Positions 15,161 through 23,487 of a DNA stretch of 64,000 nucleotides are shown here, piece after piece. The notes beneath the pieces are model-generated. The model was not told the DNA's origin. It did not search any database and was given only the letters and a program-made list of their open reading frames with translations. Location of the stretch: NCBI GenBank assembly GCA_050011565.1, contig JBEKIW010000001.1, positions 96,001-160,000 on the forward strand. The letters run 5' to 3'. The DNA comes from Dehalococcoidia bacterium. GTDB lineage: Bacteria; Chloroflexota; Dehalococcoidia; GIF9; UBA5629. The stretch's first letter is position 1. Every line of letters begins with the position of its first letter. The position numbers and the translations under genes are program-made.

Positions 15161-15502
15161 ATGCCTAGATCTAAATCTGGACCTAAACCAAAAGCTGAAC
15201 TTGAACTCAGGCCCAAGCCTAAGCTTAGCCGCAAGCGTAGACCAAAAACTGAGTTTGAACTCCTACCGAAGCCTAAGCTTAGCCGCAAGCGTAGACCCAA
15301 GCCGAGAAGCTGGCGGGTAGCGCTTCTCCTGTCTCTTTTCCTTGGGCCATTCGGGGCGGACCGTTTTTACATCGGAAGAACTCGCTCGGCGGTTCTTAAG
15401 CTCGTTACCTTAAGCTGCTTTGGTGTCTGGTGGCTGACTGACTTTGTACTTATCGCCGGTGATTGGCGGCGGGATGCCTGGGGCCGGCGGCTGAAGCATT
15501 AA
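15161..15502 (+). CDS. TM2-domain protein with a basic repeated N-terminus
   Basis: ALLLSLFLGPFGADRFYIG...KLVTL..FGVWWLTDFVLI is a TM2 signature. Confidence 0.85.
   Translation: MPRSKSGPKPKAELELRPKPKLSRKRRPKTEFELLPKPKLSRKRRPKPRSWRVALLLSLFLGPFGADRFYIGRTRSAVLKLVTLSCFGVWWLTDFVLIAGDWRRDAWGRRLKH
15188..15295 (+). repeat. 54-bp tandem duplication in the TM2 gene
   Basis: Units 15188-15241 and 15242-15295 encode PKAELELRPKPKLSRKRR and PKTEFELLPKPKLSRKRR. Confidence 0.9.
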
Positions 15503-15546
15503 CGCCGTTTGAGTTTCAGCGAGCTTTTTGCTAGACTTTTCGGCGT

Positions 15547-15622
15547 GGGGCTGTAGCTCAATCGGGAGAGCGTTTGACTGGCAGTCAAAAGGTAGTGGGT
15601 TCGAATCCCATCAGCTCCACCA
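15547..15622 (+). tRNA. tRNA-Ala (GGC)
   Basis: 76-nt cloverleaf GGGGCTG...CAGCTCC-A-CCA; anticodon arm TTTGA-CTGGCAG-TCAAA; T arm GGTTCGAATCC; G3:U70 pair. Confidence 0.97.
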
Positions 15623-16605
15623 ATAACCCTTCTGAAGCTAACATCAATTCAAATCACCTTTCGACTAGCCAAGATTCTTACACGCAATTAGATATCCCAT
15701 TACACCGTTTGATTGAAGGATTTCTGTTATCCTGTAAGGTAGAAAACAAATCTCCAGCAACTATATCCTTCTATAAAAATATCCTGGATAAGTTCCAATG
15801 GTTCTTAACCAAATTCGGGATTAATACTATCGACGCCACAACGATAAGAAGCTTTCTCGGATACCTTAAGGATACAGCCAGTAGATGGGATAGTAACAAC
15901 ACACGTGCAAATAGGCCGGTATCGCCAACAACGGTTAAGAGCTATTACATTGGTCTATCTGCATTATTTACCTGGGCTATGGAAGAAGAGTTGATACAGG
16001 TTAATCCGATGGCGAATGTAAAGAAACCTAAGCTACCTAATAAAATAGTTAAAGGTTTAGAATCTGAAATCATAATAACATTGCTAAACGCATTTAGTGG
16101 TCGAAGCTTTAATGATCTGCGTAATAAGGCTATGCTTTTAATGTTTCTGGATACTGGCTTAAGGTTATCTGAACTTGCAGGTCTGACTTTATCTGATATC
16201 AATATTGAGAAAGGCATCATCAAAATCATTGGTAAAGGCAATAAAGAAAGATACGCTAGAATAGGAGTCAAGACACAGAAAGCATTATGGAATTATTTAG
16301 CTCATAGACCAGTAGAAAAGGAGTATGTATGGTTGGGAAAAGGCTATTGTAAAATGACAGTAGATGGCATTGCTCTGGTTATTCGAAACTTGGGTAAGAG
16401 ATTAGGGATTAGATTATCACCGCATAGGTTGAGACATAGTTTTGCTATTAGCTTCTTAAGAAATGGAGCTAATCCATTCGAGTTACAGATAGCGTTAGGG
16501 CATACCACATTGGAAATGACCAGGAGATACACTCAAGCATTAGGATTTGACGATGTGTTTAAGAGACATGTGTTGGCTAGTCCGGTGGATAGATTGATGC
16601 ATTAG
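15574..16605 (+). CDS. Tyrosine recombinase/integrase (start uncertain; frame is open back into the tRNA)
   Basis: SAM-like N domain; catalytic R (DTGLRLSEL), K (GKGNK), HxxR (HRLRH), LGH and Y (TRRY) all intact; first ATG only at 15979. Confidence 0.93.
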   Translation: MTGSQKVVGSNPISSTNNPSEANINSNHLSTSQDSYTQLDIPLHRLIEGFLLSCKVENKSPATISFYKNILDKFQWFLTKFGINTIDATTIRSFLGYLKDTASRWDSNNTRANRPVSPTTVKSYYIGLSALFTWAMEEELIQVNPMANVKKPKLPNKIVKGLESEIIITLLNAFSGRSFNDLRNKAMLLMFLDTGLRLSELAGLTLSDINIEKGIIKIIGKGNKERYARIGVKTQKALWNYLAHRPVEKEYVWLGKGYCKMTVDGIALVIRNLGKRLGIRLSPHRLRHSFAISFLRNGANPFELQIALGHTTLEMTRRYTQALGFDDVFKRHVLASPVDRLMH

Positions 16606-16746
16606 GGTACGAGGCGGTGGAGAGTAATAGGAAGTGTGGGCTGGTGGATATACTAAAATGAATTTTGTTTAATGTCTAAAGATGGCTTTCGCTGGGGGAC
16701 CTTGAACCTCATATTAACAGACTATGCGGCAATCGATGCCCTGGAA

Positions 16747-16902
16747 TTAAGTTACCTCGCCTGAAAGTGCCCTGCGCAATGTCTTATTTCCACATTTTGG
16801 ACAAGGGGCTTCTTTCACTAGTTTCCCCTTAGGAACAGCAACTTTGCCTTTAAAATCACAGTTCCCGCAAACGACTGCTTCTTGATAAGTTTCATCGCTC
16901 AC
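16747..16902 (-). CDS. 51-aa zinc-ribbon microprotein
   Basis: Own translation MSDETYQEAVVCGNCDFKGKVAVPKGKLVKEAPCPKCGNKTLRRALSGEVT; CxxC...CPxCG; SD AAGGAG upstream of GTG; absent from the ORF track. Confidence 0.75.
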   Translation of the reverse strand: MSDETYQEAVVCGNCDFKGKVAVPKGKLVKEAPCPKCGNKTLRRALSGEVT

Positions 16903-17099
16903 TTCTCTATCTCCTTGCCTTGGTCATAAATATTATATCATACTGATAATATCATTCCAGTGTCGATCGCTTTGTTAGCCCGAATGTATTACTCTAGATG
17001 AGTGCCAATTCAAAACCCAGATTTTTACCACCCGTATTGCACAATAGAAACGTTCTAGATCTTCATGACTTCTTGGCTATCCCCAGGCCTCCGATTCAG

Positions 17100-17570
17100 C
17101 TATCTATTATTTGAGGTTCCCTTAAGGAATTTTCTGAATATGATGAAGGGACTTGCGAAAACAATAGTGTATATAATCGCTGGAATCCACCAATATCCAT
17201 TAGCTGCAAAACAACTTAAGATTATTCCTGTAATAAATAGCAAAAGTCCGACTATAAAAACTATACAGGCAATGATTTTATTGCCTTCTTCAAACCACAA
17301 GAAACCTTCGAATATAAAAATAAGTGAAAAACTTGATATTTGTAATGCTGGCGTCTGTTTAATTTCTGATTTCGTGGCAAGGAATATCAAAGCAACCGCA
17401 ATAATAATGGTTCCATACATTAGAACAACTCTACTAAACAGTCTTCTCGTATTCCACCATTTGCGGGATTGGAATAAAAAAATAATACCAATACCTATTA
17501 TGGGTAGTTTAGGAGCAATAAGTGTTAGCCCGTTTATAAATAGTGTTAGCCCGTTTATCAACTCTGCCAT
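17100..17570 (-). CDS. Multi-TM hypothetical membrane protein
   Basis: Highly hydrophobic; SD GAGGT upstream; 21-bp tandem duplication (INGLTL twice) near the N-terminus. Confidence 0.65.
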   Translation of the reverse strand: MAELINGLTLFINGLTLIAPKLPIIGIGIIFLFQSRKWWNTRRLFSRVVLMYGTIIIAVALIFLATKSEIKQTPALQISSFSLIFIFEGFLWFEEGNKIIACIVFIVGLLLFITGIILSCFAANGYWWIPAIIYTIVFASPFIIFRKFLKGTSNNR

Positions 17571-17702
17571 TTCTGTTACCTCTATATTTGAGGCTATCCC
17601 AAATTGTTAAGTATGTCCCGTTTATTTCATTTTGAATGTATTTGTCTATAGTTAACCTTGGTTAAGTAATTACATATATATAGTTCAGGTCAGGATGACC
17701 AG

Positions 17703-17816
17703 CGATTACTTGGACATACAACATTGGAAATGACTAGGAGATATACACAAGCATTAGGTTTTGATGACGTGTTTAAGAGGCATGTGGTAGCGAGTCCCGT
17801 GGATAGGTTGTTGTAG
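17703..17816 (+). pseudogene. Integrase 3'-tail remnant 1
   Basis: RLLGHTTLEMTRRYTQALGFDDVFKRHVVASPVDRLL*, near-identical to the C-terminus of the 15574 integrase. Confidence 0.9.
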
Positions 17817-17840
17817 GACTGGTTTTCGGGGGCAGGTCAC

Positions 17841-17936
17841 CTACTTCTTGTCTCCTTTGCTCTTCCCCTTTTGCGCGTCGGCATACTTATTTTTATGCTC
17901 GTTCTTGGGATGCTTTTTCTTATTACGCTTACTCAT
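17841..17936 (-). CDS. 31-aa Lys-rich microprotein
   Basis: MSKRNKKKHPKNEHKNKYADAQKGKSKGDKK*, SD GAGGAG upstream. Confidence 0.55.
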   Translation of the reverse strand: MSKRNKKKHPKNEHKNKYADAQKGKSKGDKK

Positions 17937-17993
17937 CGTCTTACTCCTCTATCCAGAAAAATACGATAGGTCACTCATTCCGTCATTTATTAT

Positions 17994-18416
17994 ATCACTA
18001 TGGCTGATATTGACATTAAAAGAGGAATCATTAAGACAGTAGGTAAAGGCAATAAAGAAAGATACGCTAGAATAGGCGTAAAGACACAGAAAGCCTTATG
18101 GAATTATCTAGCACATAGACCAGTAGAAAAGGAGTATGTATGGTTGGGAAAAGGCTATGGTAAAATGACCAAGGATGGCATAGCTCTAATGGTACGGAAT
18201 CTCGGTAAGAGATTGGGTATGAAGTTATCACCACACAAATTGAGACATAGCTTTGCTATTAGCTTCTTAAGAAACGGAGCTAATCCGTTTGAGTTACAGA
18301 TAGCATTAGGGCATACTACACTGGAAATGACCAGGAGATATACTCAGGCATTAGGGTTTGATGATGTGTTTAAAAGACATATAATAGCATCACCGGTGGA
18401 TAGACTGGTTAAATAG
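17994..18416 (+). pseudogene. Integrase C-terminal half, remnant 2
   Basis: Near-identical to the second half of the 15574 integrase; lacks the N domain and first catalytic Arg. Confidence 0.9.
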
Positions 18417-18420
18417 CTTT

Positions 18421-18455
18421 GATAGTCCCTAGTGTAGAATGCTCTAGGGACTATC
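18421..18455. terminator. 12-bp stem-loop between convergent genes
   Basis: GATAGTCCCTAG-11 nt-CTAGGGACTATC. Confidence 0.6.
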
Positions 18456-18533
18456 GACTCACACATTTGTTTTTAGGCTACAGATTAAGTTAAAACGTGT
18501 GGTTAAAAAAGCCTTAAGTTGAAATTCTTGTTG

Positions 18534-18719
18534 TTAGACGGTCTTATCTTCAATTGCGGCTGAAGGTGCATCCTTCTTGACGGATTCTATCCCGTTTTTT
18601 GCATTCTCCTTGGTCGTGTATCCTTCACCCGAATTCGCAATCATTTGTCCATTGGATGCAATTAGTCTCCATCGAATTTCACCTTTTTTGTCTTTGAACA
18701 ATTCAAATTTCGCTGTCAT
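18534..18719 (-). CDS. YegP/DUF1508 (UPF0339) family protein
   Basis: KFELFKDKKGEIRWRLIASNGQMIANSGEGYTTKENAKNGIESVK; SD AGGAGG. Confidence 0.9.
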   Translation of the reverse strand: MTAKFELFKDKKGEIRWRLIASNGQMIANSGEGYTTKENAKNGIESVKKDAPSAAIEDKTV

Positions 18720-18851
18720 GACATTTACCTCCTATCTTTATTATTAAAGAGATACTAGCAGAGTCAGGTAGTGGGTCAATTTGAATCTGAAAAATTCTAA
18801 CTCAAATTGTGCGATGCTACACTGGCTCAATAAAGTAACTTCAAAGTGCCT

Positions 18852-18980
18852 TTATGAAATCAGTTGCGATAAAATCCAGAACGCTAATCCTAGGGCTATT
18901 AGGTTTACCTTATTCCAAATGTTAATAGTTGCTATGATGAAACAGACTAGCCCAAGTATCAGTAGGATTGTTGTTATCAT
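18852..18980 (-). CDS. 42-aa two-helix membrane microprotein
   Basis: MITTILLILGLVCFIIATINIWNKVNLIALGLAFWILSQLIS*, SD AAGGAG; absent from the ORF track. Confidence 0.65.
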   Translation of the reverse strand: MITTILLILGLVCFIIATINIWNKVNLIALGLAFWILSQLIS

Positions 18981-19422
18981 AATTTCTCCTTTTTCTGCGA
19001 TTCAATGTCAAGACTCTTCCTTAACCCACGGGTCTTCAACTATTAAGTGAATACTAGCAGAGTGAACATGTAGAAGTAATATAATCGAGGCACGATATGT
19101 TAAATAGTTATGATATTTATAGCGTCATCGGCGGATTGATTGATGAAATGACAGGACGGAGGTAATTCCAATGGGCCTATTTGTGCACCAAATGCAAGAA
19201 TCTTGGTGTTAGGATACTGGTACGCTCAAATGGATGAGAAGGGAAAAGTGTTGTTTAATACACCTTATAATAAAGGGGTAATAGCGTTACGATGGAAAGG
19301 GTATAACTAGCGGTGGCAGGAATTGGAACATCTCAGCCAGTGGGGAGATATCATAAATTGAATACACCGCTGACATACCTGCTATAATGCTAATTTAAGC
19401 GAATTTAATACGGAGGTCAGAC

Positions 19423-19524
19423 ATGGGAAGCAAAGGAAGAAAGAACGAGAAAAAGCCTAAGAAGCAAGTAAAAGCGAAGTCAGCAGCGAAGACACCGGAT
19501 AAGACAGAACGAAAGAAGAGATAA
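19423..19524 (+). CDS. 33-aa Lys/Arg-rich microprotein
   Basis: MGSKGRKNEKKPKKQVKAKSAAKTPDKTERKKR*, SD GGAGGT, extended -10 TGcTATAAT at 19380-19388. Confidence 0.6.
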   Translation: MGSKGRKNEKKPKKQVKAKSAAKTPDKTERKKR

Positions 19525-19553
19525 TAGTCCCGCTAGAAGGCAGGATTAGCGAT

Positions 19554-19769
19554 ATCGGCGATATAGAGCGTGTAAACATCAAACCAGGCTTGCGGGTTTC
19601 AATCGTAATAAAGGCAGATCAACGATCCGGAAAACTAACCGAAGGGATAGTCAAAGATATTTTGACACGCTCTCCGGTTCATCCGCATGGCATCAAGGTT
19701 CGCTTAGAAAACGGTCAAGTTGGGCGAGTCAAAGAGATAAAAGCTAAAGGTCTTTCTCCGCCGAGCTAG
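19554..19769 (+). CDS. YwbE (DUF2196) family protein with a non-canonical or mutated start (ATC)
   Basis: ERVNIKPGLRVSIVIKADQRSGKLTEGIVKDILTRSPVHPHGIKVRLENGQVGRVKEI; no ATG, GTG or TTG in frame near the N-terminus. Confidence 0.75.
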   Translation: MGDIERVNIKPGLRVSIVIKADQRSGKLTEGIVKDILTRSPVHPHGIKVRLENGQVGRVKEIKAKGLSPPS

Positions 19770-19813
19770 CTATGTGACGTGTCCATAATAAGTGTACCAT
19801 TTTTCGTTGGCCC

Positions 19814-20077
19814 TCACCCCAAAAATTGAACACCACCATTCATTATTGACCTGAGTTTACCTTCTCTTGTAAGCCTCTTAATTCTATGCTCCATTTTAGA
19901 GGCGAGCGATTTATCTTCATAATCCCACTTCCTGAGTAATTTAACAGGTCTTCTTCCTCTGGTATACTTAGAACCAATCCCTAAATTGTGCTCTCTTATG
20001 CGCTTAACAATATTATTGCTGATACCTGTATAAAGAGTTCCGTCACTGCACTCGACTATATAAACGTACCAGGCCAT
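19814..20077 (-). CDS. GIY-YIG nuclease family protein (UPF0213/YazA type)
   Basis: WYVYIVECSDGTLYTGIS...RIREHNLGIGSKYTRGRRPVKL. Confidence 0.9.
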   Translation of the reverse strand: MAWYVYIVECSDGTLYTGISNNIVKRIREHNLGIGSKYTRGRRPVKLLRKWDYEDKSLASKMEHRIKRLTREGKLRSIMNGGVQFLG

Positions 20078-20132
20078 TCTATTTTCCTTCAGCAGCTCTT
20101 ACCTGTAATTATAACGCCTTCAGGTTGTGGCC

Positions 20133-20182
20133 GTGGCTAGTCCGGTGGATAGGTTGATACGTTAGACTATGATGCGGTGGAG
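20133..20182 (+). pseudogene. Integrase 3'-tail remnant 3 plus downstream flank
   Basis: gtggctagtccggtggataggttgatacgttag (VASPVDRLIR*) then ..gcggtggag, matching 16574-16622. Confidence 0.75.
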
Positions 20183-20319
20183 GCACATAAGAGATTTAGT
20201 CCGGTGGCTGGGTTGAGGTAACAGCGGGATGGAGTAGGTTAAACATACCTATTGACTTTTTATAATCAGGCTAGTAAAATGCTGAACGTAAAAAACTAAT
20301 AATTAAGAGGAGGTTATTT

Positions 20320-20685
20320 ATGGTCAAAACTTGGGGATGGATCAGTTTCATACTATTTTGCCTTGGCGTCATACTAGCTGTTGTCGGAGGTTTAGTATTT
20401 CCAGAGAGCATAGTCATTGCATTAATACTTGTCATTTTCGGCCTTATAATCGGTATTATACATGTCAGTATTGACAAAGAAGGAAAAGGACTGGTTATTC
20501 TGCTCCTGGCCACGATAGCAATATTGGCAATGACGGCTGCCTTTTCTCCGGTTACATTTTTGGGCTTCGGTAAAATGGCGGCCAGCATATTAGTAAATTT
20601 TGCCGCGTTAATGGCACCTGTGGCCCTCGTCGCTGCAATAAAGGCGCTGCTGCAACTATTCCTCGGACCACAAGTTAAAATCTAG
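20320..20685 (+). CDS. 4-TM hypothetical membrane protein
   Basis: SD GAGGAGG; four hydrophobic segments. Confidence 0.75.
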   Translation: MVKTWGWISFILFCLGVILAVVGGLVFPESIVIALILVIFGLIIGIIHVSIDKEGKGLVILLLATIAILAMTAAFSPVTFLGFGKMAASILVNFAALMAPVALVAAIKALLQLFLGPQVKI

Positions 20686-20832
20686 CTAGTCTTAAATCAA
20701 CAAGACTAGATTGTCATTCATCTGAGACAGGTCGCTTTTACTTAAGTGTGAAAGATGGCCTGTCTCATTATTATTGACCACGTACGCGAGGTTTTCAAAT
20801 AAGCGAGAACAGGCAGGTGTTGTATTTAGACT

Positions 20833-20883
20833 GTTTGATTAGGAGTCAAAAGGTAGTGGGTTCGAATACCATCAGCTCCACCA
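20833..20883 (+). repeat. Degenerate att copy (tRNA-Ala 3' half)
   Basis: gtttgattaggagtcaaaaggtagtgggttcgaataccatcagctccacca compared with tRNA 15572-15622. Confidence 0.9.
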
Positions 20884-21029
20884 GACAATCCTATGAAGTT
20901 ATTCCAAATTTAGATATCTTTCCATACTACCGAATTCCTACCCATATCGCGTCACTAGTTTGTATTATAATATTATATACGTTATATACGCCGCTTATTA
21001 TGGTTGGTATGAAATGTTGAGGACACGCT

Positions 21030-22274
21030 GTGCCTAAGATTCCTGACCTGGTCAATGGTTTCAAGATGCTGAAGGAGGTGGACCTGAATACGGTCCGCGC
21101 GCAGGCTGAAATACCCCTGCATGTCATGGTTATCGGAGAGGCCGGGACAGGTAAGACTGCGCTGGTCGAACAGTTACTTGTCGGGCCAAGGTCGGAAGGG
21201 CCTCCGGATTTGGTCTCCATTACCATGTATCGGCCAGACCTGAATCTGCAAATTCCGGATAATACGCTGGTATTGCTGCTTCTGGATGTTAGGAAGACCG
21301 ACCTTCAAAACGAGCGGGCAATCTTTGACAGGCTCATTGGCAGGAAGATAGCGACGGTCGTCTGCTACAACAAATCATATCTGGCCCGCGAAGAAAACCT
21401 TACGCTGAACAGATCAATCTGGACTGGTGCCGAGACGGCTGTTATTACCGCCACCGACCGCGATACGCTGATGCGCGAGCTTGTACCTGCCATCTTACGC
21501 GTGTGCAAAGGCCGTGAGACCCGGTTAGCCCGTCACCTGCCGATGTTACGTGCGCCGGTCGCGCAAAAGCTGATTGACGACACCTGCTTTATCAATGCTA
21601 CCTATAGCCTGAGCACCGGCCTGGCGGAGATAGTGCCTATACTGGACCTGCCGCTGAATTTAGCAGATATCGTTATATTGACTAAAAACCAGGCTTTGAT
21701 GGCGTACACCATTACGCTGGCCATGGGAATGCAGGCCGAATGGCGCGATACCATGCCCAAATTAGCGGCTGTGGTTGGATCAGCCTTTCTCTGGCGGCAA
21801 CTAGCCCGTTATCTGGCCGGCCTCATACCAGTCATCGGCATCGTGCCAAAGGTAGTGATCGCCTACTCGGGAACCTACGTGATTGGCGAAGCTGTTTACC
21901 AGTGGTGCGCCAACGGCGAGAAGCTCAATCCGGAGGAATTAAAAGTTCTCTATGCTGAGGCCTTGAAGCGTGGCAGTGAGGTTGCCAGGGTGCTGATCGC
22001 GAAAAGGGGTGCAGCTCAGTACCAGGCGGCCGACAAATTCAAGGAGATAGCACAGCTCATCTCTAAGAGAAGCACCACTACTCAGGAGCAGGCCTCCAGC
22101 AGGTTTCAGGCGGTTATGTCCTTCATTGCCCGAAAAAGCCAGGATACACGTGAGCAAATTTTTTCTATTGCTGATAAAGTGTTCCAACCGGGGACTGCCT
22201 GCTTGGCTTGCGGCAAGAAGTCGCCCAAAGGTGCGGGCTTCTGCGCTTTCTGCGGCAAACCCCTGAATTCCTGA
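21030..22274 (+). CDS. P-loop (GTPase-like) + DUF697/YcjF-like + C-terminal zinc-ribbon protein
   Basis: GEAGTGKT, degenerate NK(SY), hydrophobic DUF697-like block, CLACG...CAFCG. Confidence 0.65.
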   Translation: MPKIPDLVNGFKMLKEVDLNTVRAQAEIPLHVMVIGEAGTGKTALVEQLLVGPRSEGPPDLVSITMYRPDLNLQIPDNTLVLLLLDVRKTDLQNERAIFDRLIGRKIATVVCYNKSYLAREENLTLNRSIWTGAETAVITATDRDTLMRELVPAILRVCKGRETRLARHLPMLRAPVAQKLIDDTCFINATYSLSTGLAEIVPILDLPLNLADIVILTKNQALMAYTITLAMGMQAEWRDTMPKLAAVVGSAFLWRQLARYLAGLIPVIGIVPKVVIAYSGTYVIGEAVYQWCANGEKLNPEELKVLYAEALKRGSEVARVLIAKRGAAQYQAADKFKEIAQLISKRSTTTQEQASSRFQAVMSFIARKSQDTREQIFSIADKVFQPGTACLACGKKSPKGAGFCAFCGKPLNS

Positions 22275-22347
22275 CGGGCGTCAGCATCAGTTGGCACAAA
22301 CCGGATTACATATGGAGAAAAGTATGACAAAAATGGTTTTGATCGAA

Positions 22348-22393
22348 ACTGGCAGTCAAAAGGTAGGGGGTTCGAATCCCATCAGCTCCACCA
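22348..22393 (+). repeat. Distal att copy (tRNA-Ala 3' half)
   Basis: 46-bp match to 15577-15622 with one mismatch. Confidence 0.93.
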
Positions 22394-22452
22394 AAGCGTG
22401 CCGCGTCTGTTGCCTTTGACACACCCATGATTGAACAGAATTATCTGTATTA

Positions 22453-23487
22453 CTATTTCGTCATATTATCAATAATAGCCCTGCCGGCGTACTTGCCTTC
22501 GTCCAACTCCTCGAGTACCTGGCTGATTTCCGATAAGCTGGCAACTCTACCTACGTGAGTTTTTACTTTACCATCTGCGGCCAATTGAATTAATTCCCTC
22601 ATTTCTTCTACTGTACCCACTGCCGACGACATTATAAGAGGGTCTCTGCCTAATAGTTCCAACGGCATTATCGATATTGGCCCTTCGCTCACGGGAGGCA
22701 TTCCCACTCCGACAAATACTCCTCCGCGCCTCATTAATTTTAATCCGAGTTCAAAGCCAGCTATCTTTGGTGAAAATGCGATGCTGGCGTACACGCCGCC
22801 GAACTTCTCCTTGACGAATTTTTCGGCTTCGCTTATATCCACGGCGTAGTCGGCACCCAGGCTCTTCACGAATTCTATTTTGTCCTGCCCTACATCGACT
22901 CCGACGACTTTATACCCGAATGCCTTGGCTGTCTGTACTGCGTAGTGCCCGAGCCCACCCGCCGCACCGATAATAGCTACCGGCTTACCCGGTAAAACGC
23001 CGAATTTGATTAGTTTTTTGACGGCGCTGTAGGCTGTTAAGCCGCCGCATGCCAGCGGGACTTCTCTGTCGCTTACTTCCTCAGGTAGTTTTACCAATGA
23101 TTTTACCCAAACTGAAATGTACTCAGCATAGGCGCCGATAATGCCCTTAGTCTGTTTGCATAGCCTGGGCCTGCCACTGAGGCAATATTCACAAGCACCA
23201 CACCAGTATCCTCCTCCTGAGCCACCGAGACCCAATATAACCCTATCGCCTTTCTGTATGAATTTCTCTGCTCCTGTACCTAACTCCTCGACTATCCCTA
23301 TGCCTTCATGACCCATCGGCATCGGAATTGGTGGGAGAAACCCGGGCCAATCCCCTTTAACCAAATGTACATCCGAGTGGCAAACGCCTGCGGTGGTAAT
23401 CTTGACCAGGGCTTCTTCGTGCCCGGGGGTGGGTTTAGGTATATCTTTAATAACTAATTTACCGTCGGCTAGGAAAACTGCGCGCAT
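22453..23487 (-). CDS. Zinc-dependent alcohol dehydrogenase
   Basis: GVCHSD, GHEG, CGACEYC...C, GAAGGLG; start at MRAVFL with SD GGAGG. Confidence 0.92.
   Translation of the reverse strand: MRAVFLADGKLVIKDIPKPTPGHEEALVKITTAGVCHSDVHLVKGDWPGFLPPIPMPMGHEGIGIVEELGTGAEKFIQKGDRVILGLGGSGGGYWCGACEYCLSGRPRLCKQTKGIIGAYAEYISVWVKSLVKLPEEVSDREVPLACGGLTAYSAVKKLIKFGVLPGKPVAIIGAAGGLGHYAVQTAKAFGYKVVGVDVGQDKIEFVKSLGADYAVDISEAEKFVKEKFGGVYASIAFSPKIAGFELGLKLMRRGGVFVGVGMPPVSEGPISIMPLELLGRDPLIMSSAVGTVEEMRELIQLAADGKVKTHVGRVASLSEISQVLEELDEGKYAGRAIIDNMTK

Follow-up and report, generated by a model that had tools for sequence, protein, structure and literature searches.

A Dehalococcoidia tRNA-Ala island in which the far end of the element may supply the translation start of its integrase

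Results

The DNA analyzed here, referred to as the window, is a stretch of 64,000 nucleotides from a Dehalococcoidia bacterium (assembly GCA_050011565.1, contig JBEKIW010000001.1, positions 96,001 to 160,000) with a genome of 2.0 Mb; related loci belong to metagenome-assembled genomes (MAGs) of Dehalococcoidia. The window contains an island integrated at a tRNA-Ala(GGC) gene (15547..15622; ARAGORN; this and the other features of the window written with two dots are on the plus strand), and the gene of the island's integrase (Int) is located directly 3' of this tRNA on the same strand. The tRNA is the integration target, rebuilt at the left attachment site (attL), and the same tRNA precedes the close homologs of the integrase. 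The attL identity block spans 46 nt from the anticodon loop to the CCA (15577..15622) and belongs to direct-repeat family D3. A copy with one mismatch (attR, 22348..22393) is found at the distal end of the island, and another D3 copy with one mismatch (20844..20883) lies in between, has a decayed version of the spacer described below on its 3' side, and marks a former tandem element. An integrase gene beside a complete tRNA at one end, with the 3' part of that tRNA repeated directly at the opposite end, was likewise observed in G005, G019, G024, L079, and L090.

It was originally predicted that the integrase gene lacks a proper start when the island is integrated and gains one when the two ends of the island are joined. 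Translation of the open reading frame (ORF) at 15574-16605, which reads ...TGSQKVVGSNPISST-NNPSEA..., confirmed that the integrase frame is open through the 3' half of the tRNA, and upstream it is open through the whole tRNA. The spacer between the tRNA end and a conserved TTG (15623..15708) is open in the same frame and contains no ATG, GTG, or Shine-Dalgarno (SD) sequence; indeed, neither an ATG nor an SD is present between the att and the first folded domain, and the earliest ATG in the integrase frame is at 15979. The TTG (15709..15711), a candidate internal start of a short Int of 298 aa, corresponds to residue 46 of the listed ORF and to position 1 of the Pfam SAM-like domain, where that profile begins, and, as the original prediction noted, no SD precedes it. 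From this TTG the integrase body (15709..16605) comprises a SAM-like core-binding domain and a tyrosine-recombinase catalytic domain, both recognized by Pfam.

The far-end translation start (22314..22347) consists of GGAG at 22314-22317, 6 nt, an ATG at 22324, and the eight leader codons MTKMVLIE. Read from this ATG, which is eight codons upstream of the distal att and in frame with it, the sequence is MTKMVLIE-TGSQKVGGSNPISST and the frame stops at 22417-22419 in host DNA; the original description had placed the stop soon after the att. The last cargo gene of the island (21030..22274), which has the same orientation as the far-end start and stops 40 nt before its SD, encodes a P-loop ATPase-like protein of 414 aa (AAA_16 at 3.1e-6, under the Pfam cutoff). 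It should be noted that, of the three frames that cross the 46-nt att, two are free of stops (frame +1 has a TAG, as in L146 and L147); therefore, openness through the tRNA half carries no weight alone, and the weight rests with the spacer and the far-end start.

Distal att copies were located by pattern search in islands carrying close homologs of the integrase. An in-frame ATG is present 4-14 codons before the att, with no intervening stop, at all six distal copies (G000, G005, G019, G024, L079, and L090), and four of the six have a canonical SD, with GGAG 6-9 nt ahead of the ATG: G000 (GGAG, 6 nt, ATG, 8 codons), G024 (AAAGGAG, 9 nt, ATG, 8 codons), L079 (AGGAGG, 6 nt, ATG, 8 codons), and L090 (AGGAGG, 6 nt, ATG, 5 codons). 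G019 has AGGA, 5 nt, ATG, and 14 codons, and G005 has an ATG with a poor SD. Across the 128,000 strand positions of the window, GGAG-N4-10-ATG occurs 66 times, and approximately 0.008 in-frame occurrences are expected within 15 codons of a given att; finding such a start at four of six sites by chance would have a probability on the order of 1e-7 if the sites were independent, and they are only partly so. The 8-codon leaders are alike among the distal copies, and the DNA beyond ~30 nt upstream does not align. No far-end start of this kind was found in a different island at tRNA-Ala(TGC) in G024, and no distal att was found at the fragment loci L061 and L068 or in the genome of G017 (L056 and L060 are G005 and G024, respectively, and were already counted among the loci with a distal att). 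A co-oriented gene stops 30-60 nt before the far-end start in G000, G024, and the joined form L081 (see below), and ~140 nt upstream in L090, which indicates that the joined form would be one transcription unit across the att; a consensus scan revealed no sigma-70-like site upstream of the far-end SD.

The spacer was compared among 32 non-redundant loci with a tRNA-type att end, taken from genome and metagenome contigs. Left out of this count were L059, L062, L076, L084, L093, L105, L130, and L149 (no tRNA-type att end or short upstream sequence), L068 and L143 (fragments whose spacer is interrupted by a stop), L146 and L147 (pseudogene, tRNA in frame +1), L082 (a duplicate), and L109-L112 and L115 (a clade of 47% identity at a different tRNA). 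The spacer is 87 nt long in 28 loci, 78 nt in three, and 99 nt in one, every length being a multiple of 3, and no stop interrupts the integrase frame in 31/32 spacers, the exception being G019, which has a TAA. None of the 32 contains an ATG. Variation is free in the first dozen codons, which often encode K, T, N, and S, and the last 17 codons are conserved as protein, (Y/H)LS(T/I)..NSYTQLAIPL.R.

Sequences in which the far end is joined to the integrase were found in three sources. First, in the 2.8-kb contig L081, AAGGAG, 7 nt, TTG, and seven codons lead into the 3' half of the att and an entire int, all within one ORF of 350 aa, and the tRNA 5' half is absent. The gene just upstream of this long int start shares 70% identity (E 6e-33) with the final gene of the G024 island, and a homolog of that end gene placed before the L081 int is exactly what circular permutation of such an element predicts. 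Second, among the 25 database homologs examined (of 120 listed among 279 matches), four open with 5-8 residues of the far-end type followed by TGSQK...: P0002, which is of the same type as L081, P0003 (350 aa, representing 8 member sequences), P0018 (344 aa by its NCBI annotation; a second int, P0093, is on the same contig), and P0033 (347 aa). Third, contigs of four public sequencing runs were aligned to 15400-22600, and one 560-nt contig of a freshwater-sediment run (X4), an independent sample that is not the likely source of the window, matched 22087-22393 and then 15652-15860, going back 6742. This contig joins 22393 to 15652 and bears on the junction, not on the far-end ATG. In it, 20 other letters replace 29 spacer bases, and by our reading of the alignment the difference of 9 nt would keep the frame and introduce no stop. 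The joined forms may be circles or junctions of tandem arrays.

Other joints in these contigs were not retained. Those of 15572 to 22361 and 15572 to 22367, considered as empty sites, were other tRNA-Ala isoacceptors instead, and one of 15622 to 15674 in X4, with a side of 28 that is no multiple of 3, was discarded as low-confidence. Contigs of X4 and X6 also join 15725 to 17755, with 2029 nt skipped and one letter between, which indicates that relatives carry an int with an internal deletion, its 5' end fused to the remnant at 17712-17813. A separate observation concerns the last far-end gene before the long int start: in L081 (1154-1447) and L165 (15000-15323) it encodes a conserved protein of ~100 aa, 70% identical between the elements and without a Pfam family, with a coiled-coil-like N part and a Lys-rich tail. 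A role in excision or regulation is conceivable for this protein, which would be transcribed together with int when the ends are joined.

A search of 202 genomes of the order for att 3' halves without a preceding tRNA returned six genomes, three of them new (G047, G132, and G137). Islands of 2.5 kb occupy the same tRNA-Ala(GGC) in G047 and G132, and their integrase is a different one (~35% identical; PF00589 at 2.9e-20), the gene of which likewise stays open across the att in the same frame. An ORF of 80 codons that encodes a helix-turn-helix (HTH) domain (HTH_3, 7e-5) lies at the far end in G047 and reads in frame into the att, and this ORF is shortened in G132; joined ends would thus give an HTH, an att-encoded linker, and Int. 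A protein of this composition, P0165 (324 aa), was found among the homologs of that integrase (120 listed of 597); it was the only one among those listed, and it combines HTH_3 (5.5e-9) and PF00589 with an att-encoded segment. Its HTH is 49% identical (E 4e-9) to the G047 far-end ORF. The linker segment of P0165 is common to five relatives, the N-termini of which appear to resemble a tRNA read on the opposite strand. Together, the G047-type islands and P0165 indicate that an architecture of N-part, att, and Int recurs at two different tRNA targets.

Altogether, the comparative data strongly support the proposal that joining the ends fuses the SD, ATG, and ~8 codons to the integrase body across the att: the distal ATGs (6/6), the spacer frame, the joined ORFs, and the HTH of the sister lineage all agree with it. 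The sequence statements of the original prediction all proved correct, and a reduction of Int by integration would be a putative consequence.

The integrase itself matches PF00589 at 1.3e-31 (110 bits versus a cutoff of 27.1), and the SAM-like N-domain families PF13102, PF13495, and PF02899 also score above their cutoffs; no match to PF16795 (Phage_integr_3) was found in it with Pfam. In an alignment of 45 sequences (A2; L081 numbering), R204, H291, R294, and H317 are invariant and Y326 is nearly so, and these residues form the R...HxxR...H...Y catalytic motif of tyrosine recombinases. Other genera (G024, G005, G017, and G019) have homologs with 72-87% identity behind this tRNA, and G033 carries int pseudogenes. 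The distribution is patchy, with int present in 25/61 related genomes at E<=1e-30 (G000 included) and often as fragments. A chromosomal XerC/XerD dimer resolvase, as the JGI annotation names the protein, was rejected given this patchy distribution and the position of the gene inside a repeat-bounded island. Viral contigs contained no relative of the integrase, and phage and plasmid collections gave matches of at most 34% identity, of the XerD type, with nothing closer and no reference genome of a free form.

Two further placements of the integrase were observed. The same int clade lies behind tRNA-Ala(TGC)-type genes in L013 (G033:C32) and P0032, where the frame is again open through the tRNA, and this suggests target switching between Ala isoacceptors. 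A second conserved class of int-proximal sequence (L059, L076, L093, L105, L130, L143, and L149) lies ~110-145 nt upstream of the int TTG; it keeps the CAAAAG and AGCTCCACCA att ends, and the T-arm is replaced by an unrelated stretch ~2 nt shorter. No tRNA was found in this class, which consists mostly of int fragments, and the ORFs of P0045 and P0051 begin with an ATG before the stretch.

A number of observations weigh against a start supplied by the far end, and some of these concern the TTG at 15709. This codon is TTG in 42/42 non-duplicate loci, with CTG only in the pseudogene L013. The codon ahead of it is CGT in 39/42, and the surrounding ~30 nt show no variation, synonymous sites included; shortly downstream, two Leu codons occur in many synonymous forms. 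Several homologs are annotated by NCBI from this TTG as proteins of 298 aa. The pattern indicates that an internal start or a DNA site around TTG 15709 is under selection. Since the TTG is invariant while the neighboring Leu codons vary, it is the likelier start in the integrated state, and the original dismissal of this codon for want of an SD is not supported; a short Int is probably still made from it when the island is integrated.

The remaining points against a far-end start concern the extension, the distal ends, and distant relatives. Divergence by codon position is 0.32/0.23/0.36 in the spacer versus 0.16/0.13/0.41 in the body (7 sequences), and this weak periodicity indicates that selection on the spacer as protein is weak. 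AlphaFold2, run on the natural long ORF of L081 with 45 aligned homologs, gave a mean predicted local distance difference test (pLDDT) score of 80, with values <50 for residues 1-42 and no secondary structure before residue 50; thus, the extension would be a leader without order, and everything that folds is retained in the 298-aa body. Among seven loci with ~7-10 kb of sequence downstream of int, a distal att was found in the window, L079, and L090, and none in L057, L088, L094, and L145. The junction in L078 (tRNA, 2.4-kb element, att, int) has no start before its second att, the middle att of the window has no ATG, and the G019 spacer has its TAA despite the ATG at its distal att. The joined contigs are short or possibly tandem arrays. 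Lastly, 8/11 distant members at tRNA-Pro, tRNA-Val, and tRNA-Met are self-contained, with a stop after the tRNA and an ATG of their own 12-17 codons before a conserved L(I/V)xGF motif.

Two other candidate starts were not supported. The middle att is indeed entered in frame from GTG 20817 or TTG 20820, as had been reported, but these are GTG and TTG codons only, without an SD. The GGGAG and TTG inside the tRNA (15564-15576) are present as well, but this TTG (15574) is not conserved, being CTG in most relatives (G024, G017, G019, and L079), and it was rejected as a start; it lies inside the mature tRNA and would go with the tRNA during processing. As an observation on the surrounding DNA, ~40 nt around TTG 15709 (15678-15720) are conserved as DNA in all homologs and contain TTACAC and TTAGAC motifs 22 nt apart, which may be putative arm-type binding sites of Int overlapping the start region.

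Discussion

The explanation that we consider best, and fairly probable, is that int spans attP, the attachment site of the joined element, and is started from the far end when the ends are joined and weakly from the TTG when integrated, which would make a state-dependent switch. With the ends joined, in an excised circle or at a tandem junction, the far end would give GGAG, ATG, and eight codons to int, and the reading would proceed through the leader, the 46-nt att as TGSQKVVGSNPISST, the 87-nt spacer, and the integrase to yield a long Int of ~350 aa. The far-end gene and int would then form one unit, Int would be made efficiently, and the element would integrate. Integration would move the SD, ATG, and leader to attR, where they would encode a dead-end peptide of 31 residues, and would leave the int body behind the rebuilt tRNA with neither SD nor ATG, probably poorly translated from TTG 15709. 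The product in this state would be the 298-aa Int with both folded domains, most likely from tRNA read-through transcripts; a consensus scan found no terminator after the tRNA. Much Int with the ends joined would favor integration, and little Int once integrated would favor a stable island with rare excision. The many int fragments in the window and elsewhere indicate that integrated copies often decay. The most economical reading is thus one of two starts, a strong SD-ATG available only in the joined state and a weak, SD-less TTG that would always be available. The geometry, its conservation, and the joined forms were observed directly; start usage, expression levels, and how actively each of the two Int forms recombines are inferred.

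A rival explanation, which we regard as unlikely, is that Int is always made from TTG 15709 as the 298-aa protein, whatever the state, and that the far-end SD and ATG and the open frame are remnants, a small separate ORF, or kept for another reason, such as sites in the att arms to which Int or host factors bind. It draws on the invariance of the TTG (42/42) and the suppression of synonymous change around it, on the position of this codon at the Pfam domain start and three residues inside the first predicted helix, on the predicted disorder of the extension and the weak periodicity of the spacer, on the tolerance of a spacer stop in G019, and on automatic annotation, which gives 298-aa proteins. 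However, it leaves unexplained the in-frame ATGs at 6/6 distal copies, four of them with a canonical SD, as well as spacer indels that are all multiples of three, the lack of stops in 31/32 spacers, and the HTH-att-Int architecture of the sister lineages; moreover, the TTG has no SD even though the organism uses SDs, as its many GGAG-ATG gene starts attest.

An integrase of the truly suicidal kind found in SSV, in which the long form alone is made or active and the island is trapped after integration unless a joined copy acts in trans, appears improbable. Once the island is integrated, int has neither an SD nor an ATG. The three decayed int fragments and the tandem scar of the window, as well as the many homologs that are pseudogenes or fragments, fit frequent trapping and decay, and the sister lineage loses its whole HTH domain on integration. 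Nevertheless, both folded domains are complete in the body that follows the TTG and the loss amounts to ~50 disordered residues, the invariance of the TTG argues for its use, and intact integrated int genes are kept across several genera at 72-87% identity under strong purifying selection. That a tRNA-derived att happens to be stop-free and the rest is coincidence is hardly credible, as 2/3 of the att frames are open but the far-end SD-ATG alone carries the chance estimate given above (order of 1e-7 for independent sites, these being partly independent only), to which the spacer and the counts in relatives are added.

To place the far-end start among known systems, the integrase was compared with recombinases and elements that change on integration. 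According to passages of a 2021 review (PMC8371274), self-disrupting recombinases are exclusive to Archaea and tied to PF16795, and the ORF of SSV-type integrases contains attP and is divided into Int(N) and Int(C). The present case resembles SSV1, pTN3, and pT26-2, as described in parts of two sources (PMC8371274, PMC7253208), in having attP in the int ORF near its 5' side, an att that is a translated piece of a tRNA, and an N part parted from the catalytic C part. It differs in that the host is a bacterium (Dehalococcoidia) and the protein is XerC/D-like, with PF00589 and a SAM-like domain and without PF16795, and in that only the SD, ATG, and ~8 codons are parted, while the body keeps both domains and an internal TTG. 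Judged from sequence features, the window integrase would work like the SSV-type family and is not a member of it, since the split geometry is present and PF16795 and an archaeal host are not.

A bacterial case is described in part of the Islander paper (PMC4383910), where the int frame of Mx8 (IntP/IntX) extends across attP and integration alters the gene. The window integrase is not of the Mx8 IntP type, as the 5' end and the translation start are moved instead; its att is 5' of the body, and the int 3' end at 16605 is 6 kb from attR and ~1 kb from attL. In Mx8, the att reportedly lies in the 3' end of int, and the C-terminus is changed on integration. The window integrase would thus be best described, in our verdict, as a bacterial 5'-side variant of the attP-spanning integrases.

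Switching by transcription has been described for the integrative and conjugative elements (ICEs) ICEKp1, ICEclc, and ICEEc1, where the host tRNA promoter drives int in the integrated element and a far-end promoter does so once the ends are joined, with a bias to the integrated state (PMC13023037). Whereas transcription alone switches in those elements, here the ribosome binding site, start codon, and first codons would also come from the other end. Control elements or gene parts beyond attP also make expression integration-dependent in lambda sib retroregulation, in the split operon proposed by Bertani for P2 int, and in mycobacteriophage integration-dependent immunity; the parts involved there are an RNase III site, a promoter, and a repressor degradation tag. 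None of the lambda, P2, and mycobacteriophage cases is known to move the int start codon. For Dehalococcoides, passages of PMC2764846 describe tRNA-Ala as a recombination hotspot where 3' fragments of the gene recur several times and a recombinase gene lies next to it, and the window has the same tandem, decaying arrays; those passages make no mention of an int frame crossing the att. A literature search of listings and abstracts, mostly outside subscription journals, found no bacterial 5'-split integrase in print.

We consider it an even question whether attP-spanning, integration-split int genes exist more widely beyond Archaea, in several XerC/D-like lineages of Dehalococcoidia, with either an SD, ATG, and 5-14 codons or an HTH contributed across the att, the att serving as a disordered linker, the TTG as a second, weak start, and a toggle between long and short Int as the outcome. 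If true, this would provide a bacterial, 5'-side counterpart from an ordinary XerC/D-like integrase to what passages of PMC8371274 state to be exclusive to Archaea. It would also amount to direction control without a separate excision factor, through a gene start present only when the ends are joined, and to a translational counterpart of promoter switching in ICEs. For annotation, gene callers place at least four different N-termini on such genes (TTG or GTG inside the tRNA, the internal TTG, and the far-end ATG), and island finders that reject tRNA fragments over coding sequence would need the exception that Islander is described as making for Mx8 and SSV (part of PMC4383910). Reductive dehalogenase genes are reported on tRNA-Ala islands of cultured Dehalococcoides (passages of PMC2764846); because tRNA-Ala islands carry cargo of this kind, and defense-like genes here, the switching of mobility matters for Dehalococcoidia.

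Additional features of the island

Three remnants of int lie downstream of the intact gene. The first (17712..17813) is an int 3' end of repeat family D2 with 89% identity to residues 305-342, the second (17997..18416) is the C-terminal half of a second, decayed integrase of family D1 (PF00589 at 8.1e-21; 86% identity to residues 203-342), and the third (20134..20207) is an int 3' end together with sequence downstream of it (repeat family D4, 76%). Taken together with the middle att and the decayed spacer beside it, these remnants indicate that the region is a decaying tandem array of islands, ~6.8 kb in total.

The cargo includes a small protein with a GIY-YIG nuclease domain (5.4e-17) and several short ORFs with a canonical SD, with minus-strand genes at 19814-20077 and 18534-18719. 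Just upstream of the tRNA, 15161-15502 encodes a TM2-domain protein (9e-18), the N-terminus of which is composed of repeated basic RPKPKLSRKRRPK units. The sister island at L079 (1140-8776; 9 kb) has defense-like cargo encoded on the minus strand, namely an 840-aa protein with HD-CE (1.2e-43) and HATPase_c_3, a 758-aa HATPase_c_3-like protein, and a DUF5906/AAA protein that scores below the cutoff.

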